Source: a plasmid. From it: a stretch of 5,600 bases of DNA. Both the position numbers and the translations under genes were made by a program. The notes below the pieces were generated by a model. The model searched no databases, was not told the DNA's origin, and worked only from the letters and a program-made list of their open reading frames with translations. The DNA lies in the sequence record NZ_MK973083.1. One strand, 5' to 3'. This document shows, in pieces, positions 415-5,600 of the stretch. Each line of letters opens with the position of its first letter. The first letter of the stretch is position 1.

Positions 415-582
415 TCATGACCAAAATCCCTTAACGTGAGTTTTCGTTCCACTGAGCGTCAGACCCCTATCTATAAACTCTTGGCTTGGTTCTAATCCCT
501 CTAAACGATTATTATCAATAGCCGCTCTAACCGCTTTTTCTCGGCTTAATTTTTCTGTCTCTGTTATAAAATTGCTATTCAT
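415..582 (-). CDS. Small hypothetical ORF truncated/fused by the transposon end. About 38 native residues are backbone-encoded (MNSNFITETEKLSREKAVRAAIDNNRLEGLEPSQEFID) and the last 17 residues are encoded by the Tn IR. ATG at 582 preferred over the track's TTG at 597.
   Basis: ORF track 415..597. The reading frame crosses the Tn boundary at 467/468, so its C-terminus is not native. It is co-directional with rep and 25-40 bp downstream of it. Contains an RLEGLEP motif (see findings). Confidence 0.4.
   Translation of the reverse strand: MNSNFITETEKLSREKAVRAAIDNNRLEGLEPSQEFIDRGLTLSGTKTHVKGFWS
430..467. repeat. Tn3-family 38-bp terminal inverted repeat (right end, IRR)
   Basis: CTTAACGTGAGTTTTCGTTCCACTGAGCGTCAGACCCC is the reverse complement of the canonical Tn3 IR GGGGTCTGACGCTCAGTGGAACGAAAACTCACGTTAAG. 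Similarity to the Tn3/pBR322 sequence stops exactly at 467. Confidence 0.9.
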
Positions 583-621
583 CTTGTTCTTCTTCAAAAA
601 AAAGTTAAGTAAAATACCTAC

Positions 622-1608
622 CTAAATTTTTACTAGTTCGCAATCTACGAGCTTATAACCTCGTTTTTTCAATTCATTTAAAAAATCAGATTTTGAGCCT
701 AATTTTGATCTATTGCTATCGTTACCCGCTAGAAATACCCAGTAATTACGCAAATCTTCATTGGTAACTTTCGTAATATCGGTGTAATGATCTTCGAGTA
801 TTTTTAAGCAATCTCTAGCCCATAAACCGTACTCGTGATTGCTCATCTTAGGGTTTTGCTTATCGAGTTTGACGAACTTCCCATACTTGTTTTTATGTGG
901 AAATACTGGCCGTTTTGCAACTTCTTCAATTTTTTGAGCTGTTCGTTTTTTACTACCAATCACAAAATTTAAAGAGTGAATAGTACGCCCACGCTTGATT
1001 TGTTCAACCTCAACGACTAAATCAGATTTCTCGTTAATCTCAGTTATTGCAGGTTCCAAAACACGTTGATTTAATGAATTAAATCTAGGGTATTTATTTT
1101 CAACCTGAAGCCATTCTTTTAGTTTTTCTACTGTAATTTCACGACTACCAACAGAGCGATATTGTGTAATTAGCTCATAAATTCGAATTGAATGTACACT
1201 GTTGAAATAAGCGATATGTTTGAGTTGATATTGCGTGAATTGCCCTTTAAGTTGCGTTAGGTATAGCATAACTTCATCAGTCATTGCAATTCTAAAACGC
1301 CCCTCTTTCTTGAAATATGTTCTAGAGGAAACCCAACGAAATTCAGTTACACGGTCTTTATCTTCAGTTTTAACACTTCGGTCATAAATCCGTTTTATAG
1401 CCGCCTGAATTTGCTTATAGGCGTTATCTTGGCTTATTTCTGGAAACTCACGGACAAAATCAGCCACCGTAAAATCAAAAATCTTTTGATTAGATTTCGG
1501 ATCCATAGTCCCAATAGTTAAAGCTAAAATTCTGATTTCATCAATACTCAATCGGTAATTGGCTTCAATAAGGCTATTAGCCTTTACAACAACTAAATCA
1601 TTTGGCAT
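622..1608 (-). CDS. rep: Rep_3-family iteron-binding replication initiator protein
   Basis: 328-aa ORF. The N-terminus ...[23 protein letters not shown]... has the hallmark Rep_3 (pi/RepA-like) signature. It lies immediately beside four 22-bp iterons and an AT-rich region. Confidence 0.92.
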
Positions 1609-1630
1609 AAGACAACAAATTTCCTGTTTA
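1609..1630. promoter_or_regulatory. Inverted iteron copy abutting the rep start codon; likely Rep autoregulatory operator. Additional TTGTTGT/ACAACAA half-site copies in both orientations at 1632-1696.
   Basis: AAGACAACAAATTTCCTGTTTA is the reverse complement of iteron-like TAAACAGGAAATTTGTTGTCTT and ends at the rep ATG (1608). Its AGGAAA lies ~11 nt upstream of the ATG on the rep strand and could double as SD. Confidence 0.5.
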
Positions 1631-1696
1631 AAACAACAAGCAAAATATACCTGTTGTTTATATATAAAACAACAAGTATTTTCTTAAAAGTTGTCT

Positions 1697-1789
1697 ATAA
1701 CAGGAAATTTGTTGTCGTATAACAGGAAATTTGTTGTCTTATAACAGGAAATTTGTTGTCGTATAACAGGAAATTTGTTGTCGTATAAG
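1697..1789. repeat. Origin iterons: four tandem 22-bp direct repeats ATAACAGGAAATTTGTTGTCGT (1697-1718, 1719-1740 with one G->T, 1741-1762, 1763-1784) plus a partial fifth ATAAG
   Basis: Directly visible head-to-tail 22-bp repeats with no spacers, located upstream of the rep start. Confidence 0.92.
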
Positions 1790-1860
1790 TTTGTAACTTA
1801 TTGATTTTACTGGTTTTAAAAACGCCGAAAACAAGTAAAAAACAAAAATATAAAAATATA
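1790..1860. other. AT-rich region adjacent to the iterons; probable DNA-unwinding element of the vegetative origin
   Basis: TTGTAACTTATTGATTTTACTGGTTTTAAAAACGCCGAAAACAAGTAAAAAACAAAAATATAAAAATATA is more than 80% A+T. The iterons-plus-AT-rich layout is typical of Rep_3 origins. Confidence 0.55.
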
Positions 1861-1909
1861 GGGACTTTCGTCCCTTTTTTGGGCTTTCAGCCCTAATTTT
1901 TTCTTTTTT
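1861..1909. terminator. Twin short GC hairpins (GGGAC-TTTC-GTCCC then GGGCT-TTC-AGCCC) flanked by T/A runs on both sides; candidate bidirectional terminator between origin and mob module
   Basis: Hairpin 1 at 1861-1874 is followed by T6 on the plus strand and by TATATTTTTATATTTTT on the minus strand. Hairpin 2 at 1881-1893 is followed by TAATTTTTTCTTTTTT. Confidence 0.45.
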
Positions 1910-1929
1910 CAGGATTAAAAATTACAAAA

Positions 1930-2010
1930 CCCTTACAGAGCAAGTAAACTTGTTTGCTTGTTCTGCAAGGGTTCAGCAACCGTAGCCGTCAGGCGTAGGG
2001 CGGTAGCCTA
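1930..2010 (-). repeat. Left copy of a ~78-bp inverted repeat (IR-A). Contains the nested hairpin CCCTTACAGAGCAAG-TAAACTTGTTTG-CTTGTTCTGCAAGGG (1930-1971). Starts at the stop codon of the 85-aa ORF.
   Basis: The reverse complement of 1930-2010 aligns at ~80% identity with 4167-4243, shown here as rc/plus pairs: TAGGCTACCGCCCTACGCCTGACGGCTACGGTTGCTGAACCCTTGCAG... versus TAGCTAACGCCCTACGCCTACGGCTTCGGTTGTTCAACCCTTAAAG... Confidence 0.8.
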
Positions 2011-2265
2011 TAAAAGCCATTTAATTTTATCTTTAAACTTCCTTTTAAATGCTTTGAGTGGGTGTCTTTTATCGTACTCATCAATCCTTTTTTGCATTCT
2101 TTCGTTTGCTTTGTGATCGGCAAATTTTGAATAAGATTTTTCCATCTCATCTAACATTCTATCAATCCGTTTTTTATGTTGCCATTTCAGGTAAACATAA
2201 ACACTTATAGCAATTAAAGACAATATCAATACATTGTAAAAAATGATTGTTACAATTTCGCTCAC
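2008..2265 (-). CDS. Hypothetical 85-aa protein with one N-terminal transmembrane helix and a highly basic C-terminus; co-transcribed with mobC; possible mobilisation accessory (MobB-like role is speculative)
   Basis: GTG start 2 nt after the mobC stop (TAA-CT-GTG). Hydrophobic stretch IVTIIFYNVLILSLIAISVYVYL, then a K/R/E-rich tail. Followed by IR-A hairpin plus T-rich run. Confidence 0.55.
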   Translation of the reverse strand: MSEIVTIIFYNVLILSLIAISVYVYLKWQHKKRIDRMLDEMEKSYSKFADHKANERMQKRIDEYDKRHPLKAFKRKFKDKIKWLL

Positions 2266-2267
2266 AG

Positions 2268-2564
2268 TTATTTTTTACCTTTTTCAATTTCTTCATTGAT
2301 AAATGCACTCAATTCATCAAATTTCTTGTCATCATTGATAAATTTACGCAACTTAGGGAAGTTTCTATCTACATCTAAAAGAGGGTTATTTATTATTTCA
2401 TTTAGCCAAAAAGCCCCTAATAAAACCTTGTAATGCGTAGCTTTCTTACGCTTTTCTGCTTGTTCTTTTGACTTAATCGCACGAATTTTCGCTTTGATTT
2501 CGTCCTGCTTGCGTTGTAAATCTGCTTGTTGCTGTTCCAATCTTGTAAGTTTTTCGCTTGCCAT
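2268..2564 (-). CDS. mobC: MobC-like relaxosome accessory protein
   Basis: 98-aa ORF divergent from mobA across oriT, as in RSF1010. MASEKLTRLEQQQADLQRKQDEIKAKIRAIKSKEQAEKRKKATHYKVLLGAFWL resembles RSF1010 MobC (...RLAKLEEQRARINAEIQRVRAREQQQERKNETRRKVLVGAMILAK...) from memory. AAAGGGG SD upstream. Confidence 0.8.
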   Translation of the reverse strand: MASEKLTRLEQQQADLQRKQDEIKAKIRAIKSKEQAEKRKKATHYKVLLGAFWLNEIINNPLLDVDRNFPKLRKFINDDKKFDELSAFINEEIEKGKK

Positions 2565-2597
2565 ACTAGCCCCTTTATATAGTTAGAAATTATCGTT

Positions 2598-2626
2598 ATT
2601 TTATTCAGTAGGTGCTAGGCTTGCAA
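2598..2626 (-). promoter_or_regulatory. Candidate mobC promoter: the same palindromic -35 TTGCAA (2621-2626), 17-bp spacer, -10 TAAAAT (rc of 2598-2603)
   Basis: Mirror image of the mobA promoter. TTGCAA is its own reverse complement. Confidence 0.4.
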
Positions 2627-2650
2627 GTGTTCTGTTCATTACGTTAAAAT
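2621..2650 (+). promoter_or_regulatory. Candidate mobA promoter: -35 TTGCAA (2621-2626), 18-bp spacer, -10 TAAAAT (2645-2650)
   Basis: Sigma70-like hexamers read directly. The -10 lies within the oriT IR, compatible with relaxosome autoregulation as in RSF1010. Confidence 0.4.
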
Positions 2651-2732
2651 AACGTAATGCCCACTTATCAGTTTCTCTTCGAGAAACTGGTGGGCAAGCG
2701 TACCGCTTGACCGTTTCGCAATACTCAACACT

Positions 2733-4169
2733 ATGGCAATCTATCATTTAAACGTTCGCTATTGCAGTAAAAGCAAAGGGCAATCAGCTCAAGCCAAAAA
2801 CGACTACATCAACCGCAATGATAAATATTCAAAGCGGTTAGATGATTTACAGTTTTCAGGCTATGGTAATATGCCAAAATTTGCCGAAGATAATCCGCAA
2901 GAATTTTGGCGATTGTCAGATATTTACGAGCGAGCTAATGCCCGAGTTTGTACTGAAATTGAATTTGCTTTACCTAGAGAATTAACCCTAGAACAACAGC
3001 AAAAATTAGTAAGTTCGTTTATAGAAAATACGGTTGATAGCGGTAGCAATAAACTACCCTACTCTTTCGCTATCCATACCGATAAAAATAATCATAATCC
3101 CCATTGTCATTTGATATTTTCAGAACGCCAACTTGACGGCATAGACCGTACAGCCGAGCAGTTTTTTAAACGTGCTAATACTAAATCCCCAGAAAAGGGC
3201 GGAGCGATGAAAACGGCAGATTTTCGAGATCGTGAGTTTATCCAATCTGTCCGAAAAACGTGGAGAGAGCAAGCTAATCAAGCCTTAGAGCAATACGGAT
3301 ATGCCGCACGAATTGACGAACGTAGCTACAAGGAACAAGGCATAGAGCAAGCCCCAAGAGCAAGAATTGACAGGGTAACGTGGCAAGAATTGAACCGATT
3401 AGAGCAAGAAGAACGCCAAATCGTGCAAGAGCTTGCACTTAAAGGACAAGAAATTAACAAAGAAAAATCCTACTTGCAGAAAATCGAAGAAAAACAGGCT
3501 CAAGGAATGGGCAAATATGAATCCAAATTCGCAGCTGCGTTTTCTAAATTATCGGAAAGTGCCCTAAAACACGATTTAAGCAACGAAAAAGAAAAAGACA
3601 GTAAAATACACACTCAAGAAGAAAAAGTGCCTCAAAATCGCATTCAGGGGCTTTCTCAAGCAGATTTTGATCAGTTTTTAATTGATGAATGGCTACCTCA
3701 AATAGAAAAATACGTTAAAGCCCAAGAAAAGCGGGACGGAATGGAAGTAGAGATCACGCAATACGACAAGGATTTACAGCGTATTCAGGGAGACTATAAC
3801 AAGCTCACAGATAAAAATCAGGGTTTTCTCGGTTTATGGGAAACTAAAGAGCAAAAAGCAAAGAAAAAAGAGCTTGAAGATGAATACAAACATACAGCAG
3901 AGCAACGGAACGCTAAAAGCCAAGAATTAGCCGAGTATAGCCAAAAAATAAAAGCATACGAACAGAAAACGCTAGAGCCAATCAACGAGAAGATTGCCAA
4001 ATATCAAGCTGACAACCCTGAAATAAAAATGCGGAGCTTAGGATTTGTGAAAAAAATTAAGGCTCAAGGGGCATATAAAGCGGCTCAAGAGCGAATGGAG
4101 CGAGAAAAACAGCACCAACAGGAAAAACAACAGAGACATTTAGAGCGAGAGAGTGGTTTGAGCTTGTAG
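2733..4169 (+). CDS. mobA: MOBQ-family relaxase MobA (RSF1010 MobA-like N-terminal relaxase domain of ~200 aa, then a long E/K/Q-rich predicted coiled-coil tail; no primase domain)
   Basis: N-terminus MAIYHLNVRYCSKSKGQSAQAKNDYINR... versus RSF1010 MAIYHLTAKTGSRSGGQSARAKADYIQR... (catalytic Tyr at position 25). EIEFALPRE acidic motif. HTDKNNHNPHCHLIF three-histidine motif. KTPEKGGAMKT versus KTPEKGGAQKT. Confidence 0.93.
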   Translation: MAIYHLNVRYCSKSKGQSAQAKNDYINRNDKYSKRLDDLQFSGYGNMPKFAEDNPQEFWRLSDIYERANARVCTEIEFALPRELTLEQQQKLVSSFIENTVDSGSNKLPYSFAIHTDKNNHNPHCHLIFSERQLDGIDRTAEQFFKRANTKSPEKGGAMKTADFRDREFIQSVRKTWREQANQALEQYGYAARIDERSYKEQGIEQAPRARIDRVTWQELNRLEQEERQIVQELALKGQEINKEKSYLQKIEEKQAQGMGKYESKFAAAFSKLSESALKHDLSNEKEKDSKIHTQEEKVPQNRIQGLSQADFDQFLIDEWLPQIEKYVKAQEKRDGMEVEITQYDKDLQRIQGDYNKLTDKNQGFLGLWETKEQKAKKKELEDEYKHTAEQRNAKSQELAEYSQKIKAYEQKTLEPINEKIAKYQADNPEIKMRSLGFVKKIKAQGAYKAAQERMEREKQHQQEKQQRHLERESGLSL

Positions 4170-4243
4170 CTAACGCCCTACGCCTACGGCTTCGGTTGTT
4201 CAACCCTTAAAGAACTCGCAACAAGTTGCAAATTCTTTAAGGG
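4167..4243 (+). repeat. Right copy of the ~78-bp inverted repeat (IR-B). Contains the nested hairpin CCCTTAAAGAA-CTCGCAACAAGTTGCAAA-TTCTTTAAGGG (4204-4243). Starts at the mobA stop codon; probable mobA terminator.
   Basis: Perfect 11-bp outer stem with an inner GCAAC/GTTGC stem. Aligns with rc(1930-2010). Confidence 0.8.
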
Positions 4244-4367
4244 TTCGCAATAAAAACAACCGCTAAACATTTCTGCCCAGCGGTTGAAAATTTACCTATT
4301 CACCATTACAACAATGATCAAGCAGGAAATTTTTTTGATTGCCGTAAATGTCCGTATATCTAGTTGA

Positions 4368-4877
<510 letters not shown>

Positions 4878-4989
4878 TACGCTTATTTTTATAGGTTAAT
4901 GTCATGATAATAATGGTTTCTTAGACGTCAGGTGGCACTTTTCGGGGAAATGTGCGCGGAACCCCTATTTGTTTATTTTTCTAAATACA

Positions 4990-5600
<611 letters not shown>

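Follow-up and report, generated by a model that had tools for sequence, protein, structure and literature searches.

Inverted copies of a conserved core-and-hairpin element flank the mobilization genes of a gonococcal beta-lactamase plasmid

The window examined here is the whole 5.6-kb stretch (5,600 nucleotides) of sequence record NZ_MK973083.1, an African-type gonococcal beta-lactamase plasmid in circularly permuted form, and our subject is a pair of inverted repeats, termed L and R, on either side of its mobilization (mob) genes. The two arms are copies of a conserved bipartite cis-element that belongs to the backbones of small Pasteurellaceae plasmids and is under selection there. Each copy begins at the stop codon of an outward-facing mob gene and places its hairpin on the side of the replication module (ori1-rep-vbhA). 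The element most likely marks transcript ends beside that module. Plasmids of this family carry TEM beta-lactamase in N. gonorrhoeae, H. ducreyi and Haemophilus species, and whether a given variant can be mobilized determines how it spreads.

Two inverted copies of a bipartite element

Local alignment of the reverse complement of positions 1928-2010 with positions 4167-4245 yields identical bases in 63 of 77 ungapped columns, with three additional 1-nucleotide (nt) gaps, which bears out the identity of about 80% reported in a first-pass annotation of this DNA. The same pair is the top distant inverted repeat of the window (4169-4245 versus 2007-1928, 78.8% over 80 columns, score 37). Similarity scores for the arms are 37-40, whereas 100 dinucleotide shuffles of the window give a mean of 15.4, a standard deviation of 1.4 and a maximum of 20; the resemblance is thus beyond chance, as had been supposed. 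Both arms start exactly at stop codons, namely the TAG of orf85 (complement of 2008-2010) and the TAG of mobA (4167-4169). The arms lie where they were first placed, and only the outer ends of the hairpins required adjustment, each being two bases longer than annotated (1928-1973 and 4202-4245). As proposed, both outward mob transcripts would finish in the same ~80-nt element, whose parts are as follows.

1928-1973, minus strand: L hairpin, about 20 pairs, followed on the minus strand by TTTTGTAATTTTT
1974-2007, minus strand: L core, GCTACCGCCCTACGCCTGACGGCTACGGTTGCTG, directly after the orf85 stop codon (2008-2010)
4170-4201, plus strand: R core, CTAACGCCCTACGCCTACGGCTTCGGTTGTTC, directly after the mobA stop codon (4167-4169)
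4202-4245: R hairpin, 13+4 pairs on the plus strand and 20 contiguous pairs (with G.U) on the minus strand

Each arm is bipartite, with a C-rich core of ~34 nt made of 6-7-nt units (CGCCCT ACGCCT (G)ACGGCT WCGGTT) and then a hairpin of ~45 nt. Fold prediction for both copies finds hairpins far more stable than those of shuffled sequences, with z scores of -4.3 to -7.2 as RNA and -3.4 to -4.4 as DNA. Predicted RNA folding energies are -35.8 kcal/mol for the L arm (98-nt stretch) and -31.7 kcal/mol for the R arm; the hairpins alone, on the mob-sense strand, give -23.1 kcal/mol for L and -19.5 kcal/mol for R (z of -4.3 and -4.8). The similarity between L and R is not restricted to the stems. Identity is at its highest in the unpaired core and in the outermost 7 bp of each stem (AACCCTT/AAGGGTT), and the inner stems differ by compensatory changes. 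Full-text searches and recent papers on these plasmids yielded no mention of an inverted repeat, hairpin or single-strand initiation site (ssi) at these positions, although older sequence papers may describe the repeats.

An element family of small plasmids

The core is present in ~34 PLSDB records, of which two low-coverage Actinomycetota records (E of about 6) look like chance matches. It also occurs in nine loci of a collection holding one genome each of 185,579 species and in ~17 metagenome contigs, the latter being the true loci left after re-filtering 120 matches to an 18-base pattern, most of which fell in GC-rich coding sequence. Nearly all hosts are Pasteurellaceae (Haemophilus, Actinobacillus, Glaesserella, Pasteurella, Mannheimia, Rodentibacter, Gallibacterium and Avibacterium); beyond this family, the core is carried by Neisseria and by one Vibrio plasmid. 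Every context is a plasmid or an integrated plasmid remnant, and the core is therefore not a chromosomal repeat family. Repetitive extragenic palindromes and bacterial interspersed mosaic elements (REP/BIME), uptake signal sequences (USS), DNA uptake sequences (DUS) and Correia elements were rejected as identities on these grounds, given only nine loci, all plasmid-like or integrated plasmids, among the 185,579 species' genomes.

Two loci have unusual labels or surroundings. On a 1.87-Mb contig of Avibacterium paragallinarum (L009, 1-5700), an R-type element still attached to the last mobA codons adjoins a Rep_3 fragment and two tyrosine-recombinase genes, and the locus looks like an integrated plasmid remnant. 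A near-identical rep-mob plasmid of Haemophilus type (L010) is labeled as an uncultured Streptococcus metagenome-assembled genome, probably through mis-binning of the contig.

The hairpin that follows this core, at a constant spacing of 3 nt, exists in at least 12 different versions. Because MAFFT and RNAalifold could not align hairpins of differing lengths, pairs were counted by script in the palindrome register: among the first 15 stem positions, 170 of 180 (94%) are paired, compared with 44-60% when the register is shifted by 1-2 bases. Each stem position shows 2-4 different standard pair types among the variants, and the hairpin is therefore maintained by compensatory change. Mob-linked hairpin variants have a CAAGTT apex in common. 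The stems of the hairpins in pJR2, in a 32-kb conjugative H. parainfluenzae plasmid and in pPN223 are entirely different, while their 11-12-nt loops are conserved (AGACTACGCTA, AGACTGCGCTA and CAGGCTACGCCA) and repeat the CTACGC motif of the core.

The core itself is under selection, since its identity between plasmids exceeds that of the mob genes. Compared with the window, plasmids of Mannheimia and Actinobacillus (L013 and L136) have mob genes of 66-81% identity, an L core identical at 30 of 30 positions and an R core with differences at 2 of 34. The L core is likewise identical or nearly so in L006, L008 and L010, among others. Because the L and R cores each keep their own variants across plasmids, this pattern points to purifying selection rather than homogenization. 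Co-variation of two core positions, considered as evidence of base pairing, is accounted for by L and R lineage. The number of core units varies, from two in the R copy of p11745 to as many as ~7 in L026 and pPN223. In p11745 (L136, 2185-2255) the R core is cut to CTAACGCCCTTCGGTTG, which amounts to two repeat units or 17 nt, and the hairpin is perfect.

A covariance-model search of Rfam (E≤1) with the window and nine related loci returned no relevant match to L, R or their relatives, so that this check, suggested by the first-pass annotation, assigned the element to no family. A Gallibacterium plasmid (L011, 945-1105) has a sub-threshold match to sroH (51.8 bits, E of 2e-9, gathering score 80).

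The position of the element relative to its neighbors is also conserved. The surrounding features of the window are listed below; the same backbone without the transposon (Tn) is found in a 4.2-kb H. parainfluenzae plasmid (L015), from which we take the layout of the Tn-free ancestor.

415-597, minus strand: VbhA-like gene (vbhA), next after rep
622-1608, minus strand: Rep_3 initiator gene (rep)
1696-1783, plus strand: ori1 iterons, 4 x 22 bp, ~145 bp from the L hairpin
1860-1893: pair of short GC hairpins located between iterons and L, with a T run after each on the plus strand
2008-2265, minus strand: orf85/NEIS2964, in an operon with mobC, reading into L (PMC10438826, PMC12080925)
2268-2564, minus strand: mobC, in an operon with orf85 (2008-2564), reading into L (PMC10438826, PMC12080925)
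2653-2690, minus strand: RSF1010-type origin of transfer (oriT) between mobC and mobA; the minus strand reads CCAGTTTCTCGAAGAGAAACTGATAAGTGGGCATT
2733-4169, plus strand: mobA, with a MobA/MobL relaxase domain at residues 23-212
4257-4286, minus strand: third hairpin, just outside R, with a 13-bp stem, CAACCGCT...AGCGGTTG, then TTTTTATT
4412-5600 and 1-490: Tn2 remnant with blaTEM

Throughout the family, the element is always oriented with its hairpin facing the replication module, either at ori or at the 3′ end of the rep operon. In L-like copies (window, L011, L138, L136 and L013), the iterons separate the element from rep, and the hairpin faces ori. R-like copies (the ancestor of the window, L002, L005, pJR2, pPN223 and pGD2107-2) are found downstream of the rep operon and face its 3′ end, and the copy on the 32-kb plasmid follows a parAB-like operon. 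Given this rule and the frequency of single copies, the window is most aptly said to contain one L-like copy and one R-like copy, which in their inverted arrangement bracket the replication arc as much as the mob arc. The inverted arrangement would then arise because both copies face the replication module, and would not be an inversion switch. The element is often single, and many carrier plasmids have no mob genes, so it is not a property of a mob cassette. The description of the element as a repeat that brackets mob was accurate for this plasmid, but the unit that recurs is a conserved core with a variable hairpin. In pGD2107-2 (L139, 3340-3497), the element stands directly after a rep-GIY-YIG operon and upstream of mobV, 12 nt before a pMV158-like MOBV oriT (ACTTTAC ATA GTAAAGT ATAGTGAG).

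A proposed transcript boundary, or a possible single-strand signal

Our preferred explanation, held with somewhat less than even confidence, is that L and R are boundary or terminator elements that would shield the replication module from the mob and rep operons, with the core read in single-stranded form by a host factor. The sequences establish the anatomy of the arms, their membership of a family, the covariation, the conservation of the core, the lack of inversion and the deletion junction described below; that the element terminates or insulates, and that its core is read as a single strand, is deduced from these. L, a hairpin with a U-rich tract (TTTTGTAATTTTT) downstream of a stop codon, is a plausible intrinsic terminator of mobC-orf85 and would end that transcript ahead of ori1. 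R, located between the converging mobA and rep-vbhA units, may serve as a strong hairpin barrier or 3′-end structure. The two short hairpins at 1860-1893 could, jointly with L, separate ori1 from the mob operon as a barrier in both directions. The core would be the sequence that the host factor recognizes, and since repeats spaced by 6-7 nt would not fall on one face of a duplex, it is probably read as single-stranded RNA or DNA.

Several features of the family are consistent with this boundary function, among them the constant core-to-hairpin direction. Variants 6-13 resemble bidirectional intrinsic terminators in their order of A tract, stem and T tract, and 10-15 nt separate them from the stop codon of the preceding operon (rep-vbhA, rep-GIY-YIG or parAB-like). 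Further terminator hairpins adjoin both copies in the window, two beside L (1860-1893) and one beside R (4257-4286), and the latter looks like a canonical terminator for rep-vbhA transcripts in the Tn-free ancestor. Bidirectional intrinsic (Rho-independent) terminators share with the element a long stem-loop directly after stop codons, flanking A and T tracts (in L and most relatives) and a location between convergent units, beside an origin that needs shielding from read-through. In contrast to such terminators, R has no U tract, a conserved repeat-built 34-nt core stands at a fixed 3-nt spacing from the hairpin, and the loop motifs are conserved while the stems vary.

Other observations weigh against a boundary function. 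R is a stem-loop after a stop codon that lacks a U tract on either strand, its hairpin being flanked by CGCAATAAAAAC on the plus strand and by GAACAACCG on the minus strand, and a canonical terminator (4286-4257, minus strand) already precedes it for rep-vbhA transcripts; R is therefore not a standard intrinsic terminator. A scan with a terminator consensus listed neither L nor R. Termination explains neither the conservation of the core above that of coding sequence nor the recurrence of CTACGC in the hairpin loops of the pJR2, 32-kb and pPN223 types. Moreover, the hairpins are more stable on the strand antisense to mobA and orf85 in 13 of 13 variants, which is the wrong strand for terminating mob transcripts, and the core of pGD2107-2 is probably transcribed in neither direction. 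Thus, the suggestion of a common terminator suits L and applies to R only in part. Should the element prove to be a terminator only, it would represent ordinary plasmid housekeeping and a useful structural footnote.

The strand preference of the hairpins invites a different explanation. All 13 hairpin sequences fold better on the strand that carries the hairpin 5′ and the reverse-complemented core 3′, by 0.7-12.1 kcal/mol, as would be expected of a strand-specific single-strand structure. Non-Watson-Crick positions on the favored strand comprise 29 G.T and 6 A.C (P of about 1e-4); counted by independent variants, the G.T:A.C ratio is 18:2 in R-like copies and 4:2 in L-like copies. In the window, the favored strand is the plus strand for L and the minus strand for R, each antisense to the adjacent mob gene, and whichever way a fork leaves ori1, the favored strand is its lagging-strand template. 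The minus strand of oriT carries CCAGTTTCTCGAAGAGAAAC-TGATAAGTGGGCATT and matches the RSF1010 arrangement of oriT strand then mobC, which we checked in IncQ1 plasmids. It is established that the RSF1010/R1162 relaxase nicks this oriT strand 3′ of the repeat. Because the minus strand of the present oriT reads CCAGTTTCTCGAAGAGAAACTGATAAGTGGGCATT, we infer that this strand is nicked and transferred, and by this analogy the favored strand of R would also be the transferred strand.

L and R might be signals of the ssi or single-strand origin (sso) kind, in which a hairpin with a 3′ tail built of repeats recruits host priming on single-stranded DNA (ssDNA); we regard this as the main rival reading, possible but less likely than not. 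R would act on the transferred (minus) strand in the recipient and L on the other strand beside ori1, and terminator-like behavior would be secondary. The proposal accommodates the strand asymmetry, the confinement of the element to plasmid contexts and the 6-7-nt core period, which suits single-strand rather than duplex recognition. There are also parallels, which are of position only. IncQ1 plasmids, whose oriT and mobC are homologous to those of the window, have ssiA and ssiB between the mobC stop codon and the iterons, where L lies, and ssiA is oriented as L is. In pGD2107-2 the element stands before oriT in the favored orientation on the nicked, mobV-sense strand, much as ssoU does in pMV158. 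On the favored strand, the pJR2-type loop reads TAGCGT, which would match the CS-6 hexamer of ssoA.

Other evidence speaks against an ssi or sso identity. Alignments of the cores with RSF1010 ssiA and ssiB (IncQ1 oriV region) score 13-16, within the range of shuffles (mean ~15, maximum 22-27), and a resemblance to these sites (TAGGCTAC..CCGCCC) was discarded when it failed the shuffle test. Neither Rfam nor any other family provides a match. No cognate primase of the RepB′ type is encoded, there being no primase domain in any open reading frame; the C-terminal half of MobA has no Pfam domain and, specifically, no primase. The tail on the favored strand lacks a CTG or CTA primase start triplet. 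Carriers are iteron/Rep_3 theta plasmids, for which an ssi is not strictly needed, and p11745 retains a core of only 17 nt. The asymmetry is strong in R-like and weak in L-like copies, and with DNA energy parameters the difference between strands is small. For variants with a U tract, selection on the RNA of a rep-operon terminator could be the source of the asymmetry; it cannot, however, explain the asymmetry of R, because mob-type R copies have no U tract. Base-composition skew was rejected as a clue to replication direction, since it follows gene orientation.

Compared with RSF1010 ssiA/ssiB, G4-type ssi and pMV158-type ssoA/ssoU, the element is similar in having a hairpin with a conserved tail and an apparently strand-specific structure, with one copy per strand, with L at the position of ssiA in IncQ1 plasmids (mobC 3′ end to iterons) and with the element of one relative beside oriT, as ssoU is. 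It differs in that the RSF1010 ssi sequence is unlike L and R, no cognate primase is encoded, L and R are 2.2 kb apart rather than adjacent, and the replicon is of the iteron/Rep_3 theta type. An ssi-like role, one of the functions initially proposed, therefore draws some support from strand asymmetry and position and none from similarity to ssiA/ssiB. It would explain the asymmetry, the plasmid-only distribution and the conserved core better than a transcript boundary does, without a sequence or protein link to known systems.

A related proposal, which we offer as speculative and on balance unlikely, is that core and hairpin constitute a previously undescribed single-strand signal read by the host, either a new class of complementary-strand initiation site or another site recognized in ssDNA. 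Such a signal might, with the same low confidence, be common to iteron-type small plasmids and 30-kb conjugative Pasteurellaceae plasmids. Equally tentatively, it might be needed for establishment after conjugation or natural transformation, with the core and the matching loop motif as its recognition determinants. Should the element turn out to be a priming or establishment signal, these resistance plasmids would have a new requirement in cis for their spread.

Deletion, module exchange and less likely identities

The elements matter for plasmid rearrangement, as anticipated, in that the arms of the hairpins are the breakpoints of the Toronto/Rio deletion. The published deletion, of 2270/2273 bp, takes out mobA and mobC, leaving a plasmid that is non-mobile (PMC10438826, PMC4152594, PMC12080925). 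In the Toronto-type (L014) and Australian (L004) sequences, the junction reads ...CTGCAAGGGTTC joined to GCAATAAAAACAACCGC (also given as CTGCAAGGGTTC joined to GCAATAAAAAC), so that an intact L-type hairpin runs straight into what lies distal to the R hairpin. The 2.27-kb deletion thus joins both hairpins at an 8-bp repeat, with 4246-1974 equal to 2272 bp. Its endpoints correspond to the following positions.

1967-1974, plus strand: AAGGGTTC, left deletion endpoint, in the core-proximal arm of the L-type hairpin
4239-4246, plus strand: AAGGGTTC, right deletion endpoint, in the distal arm of the R hairpin

The two octamers are direct repeats, even though L and R are inverted, because each hairpin is a palindrome. 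Deletion between them removed the whole mob module and gave rise to the non-mobilizable Toronto/Rio and Australian plasmids, which provides a base-level account of their origin. Judging from the Toronto sequence and published gene content, the left endpoint in the Asia-type parent was probably a second L copy beside ori2/3. The event resembles palindrome-stimulated deletion by replication slippage, in that the octamers joined are arms of two hairpins and that one hairpin-equivalent and everything between the octamers are lost. Slippage describes a consequence of the structure and not the function of the element.

A role for L and R as recombination boundaries of a mobile or invertible mob cassette, whether as site-specific sites or as transposon-like terminal inverted repeats, has largely been refuted and is very improbable. 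In favor of the idea, raised in the first-pass annotation, ~80-bp inverted repeats bracket exactly the mob genes, and exchange of modules does occur. The mob arc (~1900-4411, and on to ~600 across the transposon site) is 98-100% identical in L008, L023, L029 and L100, whereas the rep-ori segment of the same plasmids is only 50-77% identical to that of the window (600-1900), which shows that modules have been exchanged. The part swapped is the rep-ori cassette, however, and one mosaic junction falls to the left of the short hairpins (~1855) and the other at the stop of rep (~600-610); the former is near L, and neither is at L or R. The orientation of mob relative to rep is that of the window in 19 of 19 loci with both segments; the inverted relatives looked for were absent from all 19, and the rearrangement seen instead is the deletion, whose use of 8-bp direct repeats within the stems is typical of slippage and not of site-specific exchange. 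Tyrosine-recombinase-like genes adjoin the element in some relatives, and in pAp-floR (L141, about 780-810) an insertion junction falls inside the core. Nonetheless, no recombinase, and no protein at all, is common to the carriers, and the window has only a truncated Tn2 tnpR. There is also no target-site duplication, as the flanks (ACAA before AACCC, and GGGTT before CGCA) share none. Many plasmids have a single copy, and in all relatives the element keeps its place with respect to rep. These results do not support an invertible or transposable cassette.

Further breakpoints were seen inside rep in L015, L010 and L103. The core of pAp-floR is cut at ...CCTAACGGCTA by an inserted segment beside a transposase fragment.

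An oriT-like or HUH-enzyme site, on which a relaxase or Rep encoded elsewhere, for instance on 32-kb conjugative plasmids with the same core, would act in trans, is comparably improbable. The architecture is that of a relaxase substrate, with a hairpin 5′ of a conserved single-stranded tail and wobble pairs on that strand. A 32-kb plasmid with a type IV secretion system shares this core and loop type with small plasmids typed as non-mobilizable, and a repeat array beside a hairpin whose loop has the same motif resembles rolling-circle Rep origins, though in appearance only. On the other hand, the element of the 32-kb plasmid lies ~10 kb from the putative relaxase gene, beside parAB-like genes, and two inverted copies would transfer opposite strands. 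L and R are also dissimilar to the plasmid's own oriT: the MOBQ oriT features (RSF1010-type inverted repeat and TAAGTG nick region) are at 2653-2690 and have nothing in common with either arm. Finally, gonococcal plasmid transfer needs its own MobA and its own oriT (PMC12080925).

Least probable of all is a relic duplication without current function, which would suit the missing U tract of R and the tolerance of a truncated R core in p11745 but is contradicted by core identity above that of adjacent coding sequence, by compensatory changes that maintain the hairpins in at least 12 variants, and by conserved position and orientation.

Additional identities were considered for the core. A coding extension by read-through was rejected, since the L and R frames differ through indels. 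No convincing match was seen to a promoter, and comparison by eye with DnaA, IHF, Xer/dif, attC, KOPS, Chi, Ter, DUS and USS motifs and with 16S complementarity gave none either. Conservation across otherwise unrelated staphylococcal plasmids is a property of palA/RSB-type segments. These segments share with the element a short conserved cis-sequence in a hairpin region, common to unrelated modules and near recombination junctions; they differ in host and sequence, and here the mosaic junctions are near the element, not in it.

Other features near the element or in its relatives deserve mention. Within 1860-1893, hairpin A varies among plasmids by compensatory substitutions (AGGGAC/GTCCCT versus AGAGCC/GGCTCT). 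The hairpin at 4257-4286 has arms similar to half-copies of the Actinobacillus-type uptake sequence (AGCGGT). The start of rep is overlapped by an inverted partial iteron (1607-1637; arms 1607-1628 versus the iterons), as is usual where a Rep_3 initiator regulates its own expression. The pJR2-type plasmids (L001, L002, L005, L026, L140 and L141) share a second hairpin, whose inner palindrome TTGTC(C/G)GACAA is conserved, and the conserved 21-mer CCTGAACTTGCAGTTGGCTCA; both are located ~60-100 nt away on the non-hairpin side of the core, between the core and a divergent gene for a ribbon-helix-helix-like protein of 165-179 amino acids; this arrangement looks like an operator or other cis site. 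In the 32-kb conjugative plasmid (L137, 22296-22800), the element lies within an 800-bp gap between parAB-like genes and a gene with a DnaJ domain, and is followed by a GC-rich stretch of ~450 bp packed with small hairpins that could be an origin or a structure of the leading-region type.

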